The notes under the pieces are model-generated. The model saw only the letters and a program-made list of their open reading frames with translations, was not told the origin of the DNA and did not search any database. Positions 3,744-15,237 of a stretch of 15,237 nucleotides of DNA are shown here, piece by piece. The first letter of the stretch is position 1. Every line of letters starts with the position of its first letter. This DNA comes from Pedosphaera sp. (lineage in GTDB: Bacteria > Verrucomicrobiota > Verrucomicrobiia > Limisphaerales > SIBH01). The translations under genes were made by a program, and so were the position numbers. The DNA is taken from positions 1 through 15,237 of the forward strand of contig JANOQV010000041.1 in the NCBI GenBank assembly GCA_031414955.1. Reading direction: 5' to 3'.

Positions 3744-3855
3744 CCGGAGCGCGGGTTTTCAACCCGCAGCGGGCCGTGATCGTCCGAAGGTTCAGTGAAA
3801 TCATGAGTGCGGGCGGCGGGCGGGCGCTGCTGCGGGTTGGAAACCCGCGCTCCGG
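3744..3855. repeat. REP doublet (REPIN-like), GGAG-type
   Basis: ccggagcgcgggttttcaacccgcagc (3744-3770) and its inverted partner gctgcgggttggaaacccgcgctccgg (3829-3855); each unit is itself a hairpin. Confidence 0.9.
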
Positions 3856-9040: not shown

Positions 9041-9177
9041 AAACGCCAAACACCAAACTTCAAACATCAGGGAAAAACCAAACACCAAGCCGTCAGTCCT
9101 TGGGCGCGCGCCACGACGACACTTGATGTTTGGAGCTTGGTGTTTATTTGGTGTTTGGAGCTTGGCGTTTGGTGTTT
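9041..9177. repeat. Heptamer-periodic (AAACACC-like) inverted repeat
   Basis: Left arm aaacgcc-aaacacc-aaacttc-aaacatc.. (9041-9090); right arm ..ggtgttt-ggagctt-ggcgttt-ggtgttt (9122-9177) is its approximate reverse complement. Confidence 0.85.
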
Positions 9178-10639: not shown

Positions 10640-10745
10640 GGAGCGCGGGCTTTCCAGCCCGCAGCAATCGCCGCCGACGGAAGGTGCAATCGGAAAGGGG
10701 AACCTCCGCATACAACACCGCTGCGGGCTGGAAAGCCCGCGCTCC
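10640..10745. repeat. REP doublet (REPIN-like), GGAG-type, same family as 3744-3855
   Basis: ggagcgcgggctttccagcccgcagc (10640-10665) and its exact reverse complement gctgcgggctggaaagcccgcgctcc (10720-10745). Confidence 0.9.
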
Positions 10746-10807
10746 GGTCTCACTCGCGGCAGGATTCCCCATTGAAGCCCTCACCGGGCGCGTGGCAGTT
10801 TCATCCC

Positions 10808-12250
10808 GTGATTCACTCAACCCGACTCTCCCAAGTCCTGTGCTTGCTTACTGCGGCGGCGGCACTGGCCCTGTTCGGCTGCCAGTCCCATCGCCCGCCG
10901 CAAGCCACCACCACCCGATCGCCGAACGTCGTCATCATCTTCTGCGACGACATGGCCTACGCCGACATCTCACCCTTCGGCGGTAAGATCGCGACGCCAA
11001 ACCTGGCGCGACTCGCCCAGGAGGGCGTGCGCTTCACCGACTTCTACGTACCGCAAGCCGTGTGCTCCGCGTCGCGCGCGGCGTTGCTGACCGGTTGTTA
11101 TCCGAATCGCGTCGGCATCTTCGGCGCGCTGGGACCGCGCTCGAAGACCGGGATCAATTCCAACGAAGTCACACTGGCGGAAACGCTGAAAGCACGCGGC
11201 TATGCCACCGCCATTTACGGCAAGTGGCACCTTGGAGACGCGCCGTCATTCCTCCCCACCCGCCACGGCTTCGACGAATGGTTCGGCCTCCCCTACTCCA
11301 ACGACATGTGGCCCTTTCACCCCACCTCGGGGACGAACTATCCGCCGCTGCCGCTCTTCGAGAACGAGAAGATTGTGCAACTGATGCCGGATCAGACCCA
11401 GCTCACGAGTTGGTACACCGAGCGCGCGGTGAAGTTTATCGAGCGGAACAAGGAGCGGCCCTTCTTCCTCTACCTGCCGCACAACATGCCGCATGTGCCG
11501 CTGCATGTGAGCGCGAAGTTTGCCGGCAAGTCCGGCCAGGGAATGTACGGCGACGTCATCAGCGAACTCGACTGGTCGGTCGGGGAAATCCTGCGCACGC
11601 TCAAACGTCAAGGTCTCGATGAAAACACCCTGGTGGTTTTCACCTCCGACAACGGCCCCTGGTTGCTCTACGGCGATCACTCGGGCAATGCGCACCCCTT
11701 GCGCGAAGGCAAGGCCACCTCCTTCGATGGCGGCGTGCGCGTCCCGTGCCTCATGCGCTGGCCGGGAAAAATTCCGGCCGGCTCCGAGTGCCGCGAGATG
11801 GCCTGGACCATGGACTTGCTGCCGACGATTGCGAAGCTCGCCGGCAACACCGCGCCCACCGACCGCATCATCGACGGGCGCGACATCTGGCCGCTCATGT
11901 CCGGCCAGCCCGGCGCGAAAACACCGCACGAGGCGTTCTATTATTACTGGGACCGCGGACTGGAAGCCGTGCGTTCCGGCCCGTGGAAGCTGCACCTCGG
12001 CCACGAGTACGTGAAGCCCACCCCGCCCGGCGGCGGCGGCCGGCCCGGCAAATACTCCCGACCTAAAATCGGCGGGGAACTTTTCGACCTGGTGAGCGAT
12101 GCGCGGGAAACGAACAACCTCGCCGCCCAGTTCCCTGAGGTCGTGGCCCGGCTGCAATCCATCGCGGAAGAGGCGCGCGTGGATCTGGGCGATTCGCTCA
12201 CCAAGCGCCCAGGTCAGAACCTGCGTCCCGGAGGTTCACTGCCGCGGTAA
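10808..12250 (+). CDS. Arylsulfatase (family S1, Cys-type), probable lipoprotein
   Basis: PNVVIIFCDD, CSASRAALLTG (CxxxR formylglycine motif), GKWHLG, FTSDNGP; lipobox LFG-C. Start GTG 10808 preferred over TTG 10772. Confidence 0.93.
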   Translation: MIHSTRLSQVLCLLTAAAALALFGCQSHRPPQATTTRSPNVVIIFCDDMAYADISPFGGKIATPNLARLAQEGVRFTDFYVPQAVCSASRAALLTGCYPNRVGIFGALGPRSKTGINSNEVTLAETLKARGYATAIYGKWHLGDAPSFLPTRHGFDEWFGLPYSNDMWPFHPTSGTNYPPLPLFENEKIVQLMPDQTQLTSWYTERAVKFIERNKERPFFLYLPHNMPHVPLHVSAKFAGKSGQGMYGDVISELDWSVGEILRTLKRQGLDENTLVVFTSDNGPWLLYGDHSGNAHPLREGKATSFDGGVRVPCLMRWPGKIPAGSECREMAWTMDLLPTIAKLAGNTAPTDRIIDGRDIWPLMSGQPGAKTPHEAFYYYWDRGLEAVRSGPWKLHLGHEYVKPTPPGGGGRPGKYSRPKIGGELFDLVSDARETNNLAAQFPEVVARLQSIAEEARVDLGDSLTKRPGQNLRPGGSLPR

Positions 12251-12651: not shown

Positions 12652-12686
12652 GGAGCTGCATCGAAAGGTGCGGCTCCTTTTCCTTT
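12652..12686 (+). terminator. Rho-independent terminator
   Basis: GGAGCTGCATC-GAAA-GGTGCGGCTCC, an 11-bp stem with two G-U pairs, followed by TTTTCCTTT. Confidence 0.8.
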
Positions 12687-12689
12687 ACG

Positions 12690-12812
12690 TCACTTCACCG
12701 CCGCCAATTCCGCCCCGATCAGTTCCCTAGTCTTGGCCTTCGCGTCAGCAAGTTGCACTTCGCCCTTGTCGAGCTTGGCGAGGAAGCCCTTGTTGGCCAC
12801 GCTGGCTTTGCG
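12690..12812 (-). repeat. Gene-tail fragment R1 (start-less C-terminal coding segment)
   Basis: Reads RKASVANKGFLAKLDKGEVQLADAKAKTRELIGAELAAVK-stop. Homologous to 14706-14846 with an 18-nt in-frame deletion. No start codon between it and the HEPN stop. Confidence 0.85.
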
Positions 12813-12826
12813 GCGTTCCTGCGTGG

Positions 12827-13239
12827 TTACGGCCGAACATCTGGCGGCAGCAGAGCGAGGACGAAGTCCTAAATGGCCTGGGCGTGCTGCAACGCCTCGT
12901 CGAATTCCTCACGCGTGGGGTAGGTCTCGGTCAAGTCGTCGGGGTAGCGAAATTCCCAGGCGTAGGGCGTCAACGCCGCGGCGGGCGTGCCAGTTGATCG
13001 AAGCGCGGTTCGAGCGCGGAAGCTTCGACCGCCAGCCGGCGGATGTCGTGCGTCTTGGCGGGAGTAAGGCCCCTGAACACCAGAAAGGCCTTCACCGACT
13101 TTTCTCCCGCCTGCTGGCAGTGATAGATCGCCAAATCCAACGGACCTTCCGGGTCGGTGCTCAGAATCCGCGCGCCCTTTAGATCATGTGCCGCTTTGAT
13201 GAGCCACGAATGGAGGAGTTCCTGGCGGGCCTCATCCAT
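12827..13239 (-). pseudogene. HEPN domain protein, disrupted
   Basis: YHCQQAGEKSVKA..KTHD..EFRYP motifs. Versus the copy at 14861-15237 it has a 1-nt deletion at about 12986-12990 and a TAC-to-TAG nonsense codon at 12869-12871. Original stop TAA at 12827-12829. Confidence 0.88.
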
Positions 13240-13552
13240 AGAGTTTGCGCCCCCGGCTCAGCACCTCATGCGTCAGACTGCCGCGCACCTCCCGCACCCG
13301 GTTGACTTCGCCGCGCGTGCGCACCAGCACGTCGGCGGAAACTGGCAGCCGCCCGAGGCAATGCTGCGCGCGCTGGTCGCGACGGATGGGGCGTTCGTCG
13401 CTCTGCGCGAGAATGACCATCAAGTCCAGGTCGCTCTCCTCGCCGGGGTTTCCCCACGCCTGGGAACCGAACAGCCAGATTTGCTCCGGCTGAAACTCCG
13501 CCACGAGCCGCTGCTTGACGGTTTCCAGAAGTTCGGTGTTGAGCGTGTTCAC
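13232..13552 (-). CDS. Minimal nucleotidyltransferase (MNT) of an MNT-HEPN pair
   Basis: LFGSQAWGNPGEESDLDL fits GS-x10-DxD. Overlaps the HEPN start by 8 nt. GTG start at 13552. Confidence 0.9.
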   Translation of the reverse strand: MNTLNTELLETVKQRLVAEFQPEQIWLFGSQAWGNPGEESDLDLMVILAQSDERPIRRDQRAQHCLGRLPVSADVLVRTRGEVNRVREVRGSLTHEVLSRGRKLYG

Positions 13553-13559
13553 GGAATGG

Positions 13560-13588
13560 AACCTAGCGATCACATGACCCGCAAACAA
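13560..13588 (-). promoter_or_regulatory. Putative sigma70 promoter for MNT-HEPN (leaderless)
   Basis: TTGTTT-17 nt-TAGGTT, 7 nt before GTG 13552. Confidence 0.45.
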
Positions 13589-13634
13589 GCTCCGTTCGGA
13601 TGCTGTTCCCGTCCCGATGACACGCCGTGGGAAA

Positions 13635-13790
13635 TTAGCCGGGGGCGAGAACGCGACAGCGTGCGTGGCCCCCGGGCTTCGGAGACGGCGGCGGACTGGC
13701 GGCCAGCGACTCCACCAGTTGCAGCAACGCGGCCTGCGTCGGCTCCAGCAGAACCCGCGCCTTCTCGAACAGTTTTTCCGCTGTGCTCAT
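13635..13790 (-). pseudogene. DUF2281-like antitoxin, probably truncated; no cognate toxin follows
   Basis: 51-aa ORF below the track cutoff: MSTAEKLFEKARVLLEPTQAALLQLVESLAASPPPSPKPGGHARCRVLAPG. The N-terminal half resembles DUF2281 antitoxins; the usual acidic DFD..L tail is missing. Confidence 0.55.
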
Positions 13791-13796
13791 GGGGAA

Positions 13797-13824
13797 ATAG
13801 TATCGCGATGAAAGCTGGTTTCAA
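13797..13824 (-). promoter_or_regulatory. Putative sigma70 promoter for the 13790 ORF (leaderless)
   Basis: TTGAAA-16 nt-TACTAT, 6 nt before ATG 13790. Confidence 0.55.
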
Positions 13825-13950
13825 GGCTGCTGAAGGGCGTTTTTGAGTTCTGACGTCGCAACGGACAGAGGGGAATATCGACGCTGAAGTCGGGTGGTTG
13901 AGCGGCGTTGGTATCTCTGGATGATGCGCCTGCGATTCACGCCACTTGGC

Positions 13951-14658
13951 CTACTGACTGGGCAGCGGGAAATTCATCGAGATGGACCCCTTGGGTTGGA
14001 AAACAACTCGGAGGTCGGTTCCCTGCGCGTGCGCCTTGGTGGCCGCTGCTCGCTCAATTGCGCCGTGAACCAAGTGGCGAGACGGGCCGTAAATGTATAA
14101 ACGATCGAGATTCCGACTGCTGTCCAAAAGTCCAACCACCTCAGCTGTTGTCAGGCGATCAGCTGAAAAACTTATGTATCTGAGAGTGTCGGTCTGGACG
14201 AGCTTGAGTAGCCCGTTGACGGTGATGTTGCTGCAGCTTGCGACGTTGACGCCCCACGGCTGCATTCGTGCAGCGATCAGTTCCAAGCCGGCATCGGTGA
14301 TGGATGTGCCCTCCAATCCCAGATCGTGCATCGAAGGAATTCGGGCCAAAGACTCGATCCCCTGGTCAGTGATGCGGGATGATCCATTAAGGCTGGCGCA
14401 AAAAAGATTCGTGAGACCTACCCGACCGAGCGCCTCCATTTTCTCGTCGGTCGCTGTGCGATACCAGAACTGAACCTCTCGCAGTTTATGAAACTTCTTA
14501 AGGTCGGGATAATCCTTCAGCGGGAGGTAATCGAGAATCAGGTGTGTATTGTTCCGAGAGGTCCACGCGATACCCCAACGCGACCCTGGCGACGGTGGAG
14601 GGCTGCCGCAACCGGCGACGAACAAGGCCAGCAGCACAACAATGACGAGAACGCGCAT
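13951..14658 (-). CDS. Leucine-rich-repeat lipoprotein
   Basis: Lipobox VAG-C after a hydrophobic signal; repeats LNGSSRITDQGIESL, LEGTSITDAGLELI, VASCSNITVNGLLKL. Confidence 0.8.
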   Translation of the reverse strand: MRVLVIVVLLALFVAGCGSPPPSPGSRWGIAWTSRNNTHLILDYLPLKDYPDLKKFHKLREVQFWYRTATDEKMEALGRVGLTNLFCASLNGSSRITDQGIESLARIPSMHDLGLEGTSITDAGLELIAARMQPWGVNVASCSNITVNGLLKLVQTDTLRYISFSADRLTTAEVVGLLDSSRNLDRLYIYGPSRHLVHGAIERAAATKAHAQGTDLRVVFQPKGSISMNFPLPSQ

Positions 14659-14705
14659 AAGCCGCCGAACGCTTTAGTGGAGCGCCCACTCTCCAACTCG
14701 GATTC

Positions 14706-14846
14706 TCACTTCACCGCTGCCAGTTCCGCCCCGATCATTTCCTTCGTCTTCGCCTTCGCATCGGCGAGCTGCACTTCGCCCTTGTCGAGCTTGGCGAGGA
14801 AGGCCTTCTGCGCGAGGCAGTCCTTGTTGGCCACGCCGGCTTTGCG
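14706..14846 (-). repeat. Gene-tail fragment R2
   Basis: Reads RKAGVANKDCLAQKAFLAKLDKGEVQLADAKAKTKEMIGAELAAVK-stop; begins 14 nt after the HEPN stop, as R1 does. An in-frame GTG at 14855 could give a 49-aa ORF. Confidence 0.85.
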
Positions 14847-14860
14847 ACACGTCACCCAGC

Positions 14861-15237
14861 TTATGGCCGCACTCCGGTCGGCAGCAAAGCGATCACAAAG
14901 TCGTAGATCGCTTGAGCGTGTTGAACCGCTTCGTCGAATTCGGCGCGCGTCGGGTAGGTTTCCGACAAGTCGTCGGGATAGCGAAATTCCCAGGCGTAAG
15001 GAGTCAACGCGGCGGCGGGAGAGATCAGTTCGTCAAAGCGGCGATCCAGTGCGGATGCTTCCACCGCCAGCCTTCGGATGTCGTGCGTCTTGGCGGGAGT
15101 GATCCCCTTGAAAACCAGAAAAGCTTTCACCGCCTTTTCGCCCGTTTGCTGGCAATGATAAATCGCCATGTCAAGCGGACCGTCAGGGTCGGCACCGAGA
15201 ATGCGCGCGCCCTTGAGATCGTTCGCGGCCTTGGTCA
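14861..15237 (-). CDS. HEPN domain protein, intact over the visible part (start lies beyond the right edge)
   Basis: Frame is open from the window edge: TKAANDLKGARILG..YHCQQTGEKAVKA..KTHD..EFRYP..VRP-stop. About 82% identical (22 differences in 124 aa, hand count) to the disrupted copy. Confidence 0.9.
   Translation of the reverse strand, partial: TKAANDLKGARILGADPDGPLDMAIYHCQQTGEKAVKAFLVFKGITPAKTHDIRRLAVEASALDRRFDELISPAAALTPYAWEFRYPDDLSETYPTRAEFDEAVQHAQAIYDFVIALLPTGVRP

Follow-up and report, generated by a model that had tools for sequence, protein, structure and literature searches.

Copied gene ends and toxin-antitoxin cargo in a Pedosphaera contig: probable displaced 3' ends of a pyruvate:ferredoxin oxidoreductase gene

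The window analysed here, 15,237 nt long, is the whole of contig C41 (JANOQV010000041.1) of Pedosphaera sp. assembly GCA_031414955.1, hereafter the source genome (6.5 Mb, 313 contigs; 95.9% complete, 5.84% contamination). On its minus strand, two short repeats, R1 and R2, punctuate an array of small genes; their starts are separated by 2016 nt, both end at the TGA of a frame reading ..IGAELAAVK, and similarity ceases there, as a first-pass annotation made from the sequence alone had reported. We propose that R1 and R2 are probably displaced 3' ends ("tails") of a gene encoding pyruvate:ferredoxin/flavodoxin oxidoreductase (PFOR), left behind when DNA of relatives recombined into the gene and brought in a new end together with cargo, without an integrase.

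Parent gene and coding signature of the tails

A third copy of the tail forms the left end of contig C65, where it is the 3' end of a minus-strand frame of ~1,600 codons that runs off the contig a few bases before its stop codon. Judged by its POR_N, POR, PFOR_II, Fer4 and TPP domains (TIGR02176 scored under its cut-off), this gene is a fused PFOR and the parent of R1 and R2, which match its end with 91% identity over 133 nt (R2) and 88% over 95 nt, or 90% over 115 nt with a gap (R1). The first-pass annotation had placed an intact parent to the right of the window. The parent exists, although the window, being a whole contig, cannot be read further to the right. We infer that C41 and C65 are physically adjacent, with a gap between them that is unseen, and found neither an end overlap of ≥15 nt nor a public-run contig spanning that gap. 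The tail was also considered as a complete small protein family, which is rejected by the parent itself and by tails with deletions, frameshifts and changes at conserved residues.

Across the order, 146 of 401 genomes matched the PFOR end, as against none of 11 congeners, and PFOR homologues only 25-40% identical were found in two of the five congeners examined. The nearest copy belongs to another family (95% protein and 91% DNA identity), and the majority of records holding close PFORs are titled Verrucomicrobiota; the PFOR gene itself seems to move between lineages. Upstream of PFOR on C65 stands what we take to be an aspartate-tRNA-ligase-like gene (aspS), with an in-frame internal repeat (L001:5829-6473; 300 nt, 87%, spacing 345 nt) that may represent two alleles joined inside the gene, by nature or by assembly.

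The pattern is not specific to PFOR; it extends through the genome and across the order. When the 3,789 genes found by a codon-score gene caller were scanned within their own contigs, 28 same-strand copies of 3' ends were found downstream of 24 genes (3 upstream, 1 inverted), together with copies of gene heads (7 upstream, 3 downstream). Tail-bearing anchors include lysS, thrS, lepA, gcvP, asd, thiH, LytB, an M16 peptidase and an aldehyde dehydrogenase, with arrays of up to three tails, in line with the earlier suggestion that the tail is a recurring anchor.

Tails differ from their parents mainly at synonymous sites. With C11, C184 and two C56 rows left out, 24 of the 28 tails show differences numbering 71/46/270 at codon positions 1/2/3, that is, 270 of 387 at the third position, with 251 synonymous versus 89 non-synonymous codons; eight PFOR tails give 37/22/109. 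We estimate that a copy identical at birth and neutral beside a selected parent would show a third-position count at most about twice the second-position count. Because the third-position differences exceed this estimate, tail and parent were most likely separate coding alleles. Moreover, similarity ends ≤10 nt from the stop codon in 20 of the 24 tails, a distance whose lower bound is inherent in the class and whose upper bound is not.

These data bear on true target duplication, in which the resident 3' end would be copied in break repair as cargo enters, the copies diverging later. The length range, the defence-type cargo and the lack of mobile genes fit such insertions as far as they are described (PMC2853133), some tails are 95-99% identical to their parent, and tails group, with rough support, with parents of the type found in their own lineage. 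However, there are 270 third- versus 46 second-position differences, similarity in those 20 tails stops at the stop codon instead of running into intergenic DNA, and the same cargo lies behind an intact, tail-less gene in other families; we regard target duplication as unlikely.

The array in the window and its population data

The gene order and coordinates of the first-pass annotation hold when compared with frames, Pfam and alignment. From right to left, along the minus strand, the array and its flank comprise:

14861..15237, minus strand: HEPN-T gene, proximal copy (HEPN2); PF05168 E 4.6e-22; 124-aa open frame, truncated at its 5' end by the end of the contig
14706..14845, minus strand: tail R2, a copy of PFOR from ~46 codons before its stop through the stop itself; 91% over 133 nt against C65:1-133, 12 differences
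13951..14658, minus strand: predicted lipoprotein with leucine-rich repeat (LRR)-like repeats, 235 aa, 56% GC; lipobox-like LFVAGC; LRR_6 E 0.082, under cut-off
13797..13824, minus strand: promoter-like TTGAAA-16-TACTAT, preceding the DUF2281 remnant
13635..13790, minus strand: DUF2281-family antitoxin remnant; 74% amino acid identity over 42 residues to the DUF2281 gene at L039:14490-14699
13232..13552, minus strand: minimal nucleotidyltransferase (MNT), overlapping the HEPN start; PF18765 E 2.8e-8, PF01909 E 4.3e-8
12827..13239, minus strand: HEPN-T pseudogene, distal copy (HEPN1); PF05168 E 5.4e-15
12690..12812, minus strand: tail R1, the PFOR 3' end copied with an in-frame loss of 18 nt; 88-90% identity to the C65 copy
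12754-12786 and 14770-14802, no strand assigned: 33-nt block in which R1 equals R2 exactly; candidate crossover point or possible assembler strain switch
12652..12677, plus strand: 11-bp hairpin with its T-run on the plus strand, 12 nt past the R1 stop; -21.2 kcal/mol, z -4.98
10772..12250, plus strand: sulfatase, convergent flank; profile match

That homology stops at the tail is true of the 3' side; on the 5' side, HEPN and tail form one repeat unit (78% identity across 528 nt), with 15 nt from HEPN stop to tail in both units. HEPN1 and HEPN2 differ at 16/5/54 sites by codon position (54 of 75 at the third), an excess indicating coding evolution of both copies until the distal one was broken. 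Consistent with the earlier view that the distal unit decays first, HEPN1 in the alignment has lost one base near 12990 and stops prematurely near 12870. Instead of a pair of fresh insertions, R1 and R2 seem to represent two alleles of a single HEPN-tail junction.

Eight public runs contain part of the window, and two of them, from one study (X1 and X2), contain most of it; depths refer to contigs in these two runs and not to shares of cells, and X3 and X5, with small shares, were not used. Depth in X1/X2 is 13.6/8.1 for the LRR contig and 3.1/0 for HEPN2, and public contigs end within the 33-nt block common to R1 and R2. A 90-nt contig (depth 9.8/9.2) spans 14773-14845 with 7 differences and continues with 17 letters identical to PFOR, which hints at an allele with PFOR intact up to the site of R2, an empty site for the proximal unit; the 17 letters fall short of the 31-letter bridge rule, and PFORs of other organisms also align here. 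The contig pattern would result from a natural crossover in the 33-nt block or from an assembler switching strains. In the latter case, the two-tail array would be an assembly chimera of strains PFOR-LRR-MNT-HEPN1-R1 and PFOR-(MNT)-HEPN2-tail joined at the block, the single tails being real. The depth contrast between LRR and HEPN2, the 90-nt contig running into PFOR, the contig end inside HEPN2, the 5.84% contamination and the 87% in-frame 300-nt repeat of aspS beside PFOR all favor a chimera. On the other hand, for the PFOR end, the genome's own assembly has no allele but that of C65, usual reads are longer than a 33-nt repeat, the same data fit a population with the proximal unit in some cells only, and multi-tail arrays occur in other assemblies (PFOR in L186, L060 and L215; lysS in G007, G010 and G123). 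We consider a chimera rather unlikely.

Pfam bears out the HEPN and MNT labels and alignment the DUF2281 remnant, while the LRR label has only the weak match listed above. MNT stands next to a PF05168 HEPN gene, the arrangement of a HEPN-T/MNT module, with the distal HEPN broken; the MntA model scored under its cut-off on MNT, the window HEPN is without the Rx4-6H motif (by eye), and PADLOC made no call for the HEPN or LRR proteins. The lipoprotein gene has no second copy in the source genome or in the compared loci. The hairpin named as a terminator is indeed strong; judged by consensus, with the T-run on the plus strand, it would terminate transcription from the sulfatase side and not that of the minus-strand array.

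PFOR is absent behind the sulfatase in the congeners compared. Three congeners carry small accessory or toxin-antitoxin-like genes behind the same sulfatase, at the position of the PFOR array (L329:1383-2016, L331:2844-3577, L333:2708-3318). Elsewhere in the window, long intergenic inverted repeats recur at 2614-2693, 3744-3855, 9041-9177 and 10640-10745, some composed of short tandem units, and at the left contig end (235-1754) two adjacent genes have HNH-like C-termini, with one Pfam HNH match (E 6e-4).

Tails in other genomes and the proposed route

Two PFOR matches on a single contig occur in at least 4 of the 145 other matching genomes (G106, G131, G296, G305). Among the matches listed, pattern scans found further loci with parent and tail (L130, L231, L209, L262/L263) and multi-tail arrays (three tails in L186, two in L060 and L215), plus tail-only loci. 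Among 113 non-redundant intact PFOR ends with ≥1.5 kb downstream, a set enriched for tails by the picking of multi-match genomes, there were seven tail copies of ≥50 nt (one in tandem) and one long truncated copy, three other ends having only 17-22-nt matches. A class-wide search matched 24 of 401 and contributed nothing further, with extra copies only in the source genome and in G093, the latter left out as ambiguous with both matches at contig ends. In L186 (1-11809), the three tails stand without a parent and flank a secreted protein, a PDC-M30 pair, HNH and a serpin. In G296 (L040:9894-14899), a 786-nt copy of the PFOR 3' part (96%) ends 114 nt before the stop and lies ~4 kb downstream, with a transposase-like frame (by eye) in between; it is a different kind of duplication.

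As the first-pass annotation anticipated, cargo between PFOR and tail differs among genomes; behind PFOR stand DUF2281-PIN, DUF5131 with a PDC-M30 partner, HNH, a serpin, a sigma factor or secreted proteins, and one fixed segmental duplication with invariant cargo is rejected. None of the three results named in advance as fatal to the annotation's reading (a small protein family, no parent gene, a fixed duplication) occurred. The DUF2281 module of the window, with its promoter, lies directly behind intact PFOR in G131 and G216, with a homologous leader within ~60 nt; the MNT, HEPN and LRR genes of the window have no counterpart in any PFOR locus compared. Of 14 loci, three have relatives of the MNT-HEPN pair lodged between a tail and its gene, thrC or nuoL; a further one has them immediately after intact thiC.

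PFOR tails start 115 to 285 nt before the stop (L095 and L156 rows, self-aligned, and the weak G216 row were left out of the alignment). In a tree with rough, unsettled bootstrap support, they cluster with the local parent type of each lineage. One travelling ancestral tail behind a 140-nt start shared by several of them was considered and is not supported, tails grouping with local parent types (bootstrap unsettled); that start is obtainable by slippage between two GCAAAGCC repeats 24 nt apart, as seen in the sequence. Some tail-bearing records are titled Acidobacteria; titles are unreliable, and we do not claim cross-phylum spread.

The source genome is not unusual, since 129 loci of other genomes (930 genes) contain eight downstream tails, three of them at PFOR (two of the eight are duplicates of each other). 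Pfam searches of the cargo of 15 of the 24 anchors gave 11 with toxin-antitoxin or restriction-modification matches, one with AAA_14/DUF4143, one with DUF6883/DUF4926 and two with none; restriction-modification-type cargo occurs in the source genome only at thrS and on C31. Inserts are mostly 0.2-5 kb, with a median gene-to-tail distance of ~1.6 kb.

A second hotspot is lysS, with one to three tail copies in 8 of 11 loci examined (4 of 4 congener loci), which had partly been picked for having extra matches; multi-tail arrays occur in G007, G010 and G123. Units of the source-genome lysS array show 80-93% protein identity to direct neighbours of intact lysS in G087, G015 and G164, members of other families. 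G007 and G009 have different cargo behind lysS and, after the last tail, a shared gene (94.7%), which indicates that new cargo was placed between gene and tail. In the source genome (C83; L298:1-3870), three copies of the 3' part of lysS stand behind the gene, a toxin-antitoxin pair separating each from the next, an array cleaner than that of the window; on the same contig lies convergent thrS, with copies of its own tail around methylase and nuclease genes. Orphan thiC tails lie at C144:4113-4259, C27:373-516 and C31:2878-2958, one within the tail-bracketed cargo of another gene, and thiC itself is on C231. At C56:90027-104320, a pair of convergent genes shares one 9.5-kb block, each gene having its tail copy at the far end. 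Mirror cases, rarer than tails, have a copy of the 5' part upstream and cargo between head and gene (C90:5987-7405, C267:9211-10284).

The displacement of resident 3' ends proposed above could proceed in three steps. First, an incoming piece with the gene's 3' part and its downstream neighbours would pair with the resident gene by homologous recombination, and a homology-poor junction, lying ~60-500 nt short of the resident stop, would join its far end, giving gene-cargo-tail; alternatively, the piece might circularise and enter by one crossover, with the same outcome. In a second step, the donor's tail would serve as a ready right-hand homology arm, the block entering relatives by two crossovers within the recipient gene, and repeated entry would stack units, the newest adjoining the gene. 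In the window, HEPN2-R2 and HEPN1-R1 would be diverged alleles of one block, the proximal one having come later, in front of the LRR-DUF2281-MNT-HEPN unit. Third, toxin-antitoxin cargo would resist loop-out between the repeats while distal units decay. The anatomy is compatible with a homologous anchor at one end and a homology-poor junction at the other, as in homology-facilitated illegitimate recombination, a process of DNA uptake that requires RecA. The genes comEC and dprA are present in the source genome, weak support given how common these genes are.

A different source of the same anatomy would be integrase elements targeting the PFOR 3' end, as e14 does at icd, whose integrases were lost or act in trans. 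Gene-cargo-tail corresponds to e14/icdC as described (PMC13626634), the tails R1, R2, G106 and L263 share a start base 140 nt before the stop (G106 and L263 also share the flank), and the C41-C65 gap is unseen. However, tail starts vary from 115 to 285 nt at PFOR and from 57 to 489 nt before the stop genome-wide, which argues against a site-specific att core (erosion of starts is possible), and no shared junction motif was found by eye across tail starts. Set against 24 different anchors, the source genome has 8 matches to PF00589 (tyrosine recombinase), none of them on C41 or the 21 tail-bearing contigs, and no match to PF00239; PF00589 is likewise missing between PFOR and tail in G305, G131 and G106. 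The tail pattern had no match in IMG/VR, where two weak protein matches were not confirmed, and the median gene-to-tail distance is only ~1.6 kb. An integrase origin is in our view improbable.

Several points weigh against the displacement of resident ends. The third-position bias could follow later overwriting of the parent's end by relatives' alleles, and the own parent is the best match for four of nine tails (G305, G131, L130, G296, as opposed to R1, R2, G106, L231 and L209), so a foreign origin of one copy is not uniform. The recombinase search covered PF00589 and PF00239 only, and the unseen C41-C65 gap could hold a recombinase. Ku was not found in the 95.9% complete genome, which weakens the circle route. 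Cover of HEPN2 is low or zero in the two best runs, and the two-tail join may be a strain mix. That tails are nearly all <500 nt is accounted for only by assumed selection, the recombination event was observed in no case, and homology-facilitated illegitimate recombination is described as rare in experiments (PMC5361080).

A broader reading is offered more tentatively, as a possibility that we lean against: conserved gene ends may act as enzyme-free attachment sites, and gene-cargo-tail blocks may propagate themselves between Verrucomicrobiota families by host recombination alone, with the tail as second arm, stacking into integron-like toxin-antitoxin and defence arrays at hotspots such as PFOR and lysS. 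If true, this would be a main way of spreading for small chromosomal toxin-antitoxin pairs that have neither transposase nor integrase.

Comparison with known systems

Small chromosomal toxin-antitoxin and defence cassettes often lack a mobility gene, and their arrival is poorly documented; the tails are scars that leave a countable footprint (24 of 3,789 genes) and give the order of arrival within arrays. The pair in the window, MNT followed by an overlapping PF05168 HEPN, resembles HEPN-T/MNT pairs and is a predicted toxin-antitoxin, in which MNT would neutralise HEPN toxicity; the HEPN-T naming comes from Anantharaman et al. (2013; PMC3710099), where several HEPN-T proteins are described without Rx4-6H.

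In the e14 system at icd, a 15-kb prophage with SOS excision is driven by an integrase and leaves an icdC fragment beyond the insert (PMC13626634). As described there, the insert supplies a replacement 3' end, with the old end and its few substitutions beyond it, as in our arrays. In contrast, inserts here are mostly 0.2-5 kb, with no recombinase detected and no fixed crossover point; the visible part of the window units holds no integrase (the C41-C65 gap being unseen), and PFOR tails start anywhere from 115 to 285 nt, erosion being possible.

Homology-facilitated illegitimate recombination was put forward for type VI secretion system (T6SS) effector-immunity, rhs and cdiA arrays (Kirchberger et al., 2017; PMC5361080). 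As far as that account of sequential displacement goes, these share with our arrays the lack of an integrase, an incoming piece anchored in conserved sequence upstream, older units pushed downstream and a proposed mobility by homologous recombination. They differ in that the displaced end is a variable toxin tip, whereas in our arrays it belongs to a housekeeping gene (PFOR, lysS, thrS, lepA, gcvP, asd, thrC, nuoL) and is conserved, with cargo that bears no relation to the anchor.

Insertion with long target duplication was described for restriction systems that lack mobile genes and are flanked by direct repeats of ~24-420 bp, repeats that often extend across a start or stop site (Furuta, Abe, Kobayashi, 2010; PMC2853133). 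Judged from that description, the arrays here are alike in combining a small defence-type insert, direct repeats whose length runs from tens to hundreds of bases, an anchor gene left intact and, in the part seen, no mobile-element gene. The direct repeats of the window exceed the 30 bp used there (115-133 nt aligned among R1, R2 and the parent), and against the limit of 20 kb without a mobile gene, the R2-R1 unit measures 2 kb and showed none in searches that covered PF00589 and PF00239, the proximal unit being cut by the contig end. In contrast, the insert holds MNT-HEPN, DUF2281 and the lipoprotein instead of restriction and modification genes, and cargo across our arrays is mostly toxin-antitoxin pairs. 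Nor do both repeats appear to come from the recipient target, given 270 of 387 differences at the third position and the end at the stop, with parent overwriting possible; the repeats are 72-99% identical, and their synonymous bias and end at the stop point to two alleles. Furthermore, units stack at one gene, and cargo families are tied to anchors across families. Empty-site data comprise only the 90-nt contig, with 17 letters past the joint, and the congeners, in which 0 of 11 match the PFOR end. We file the array as a variant of insertion with long target duplication that fails two of its features, restriction cargo and the origin of both copies from the target. An earlier reference on such insertions, Nobusato in 2000, is cited by Furuta and colleagues and also appears in PMC2654758. 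Strict phrase matching in the open-access literature gave no paper on tails of PFOR or lysS, nor on this kind of movement of toxin-antitoxin pairs, which is a weak negative. The codon position of differences, combined with the end at the stop, offers a simple sequence test to distinguish allele displacement from true target duplication. This kind of insertion, a route that has been little studied, is already published for restriction systems, and the arrays form no new class; what they add is breadth, stacking at named hotspots, cargo pools linked to anchors and a sharper mechanism with a testable second-arm step.

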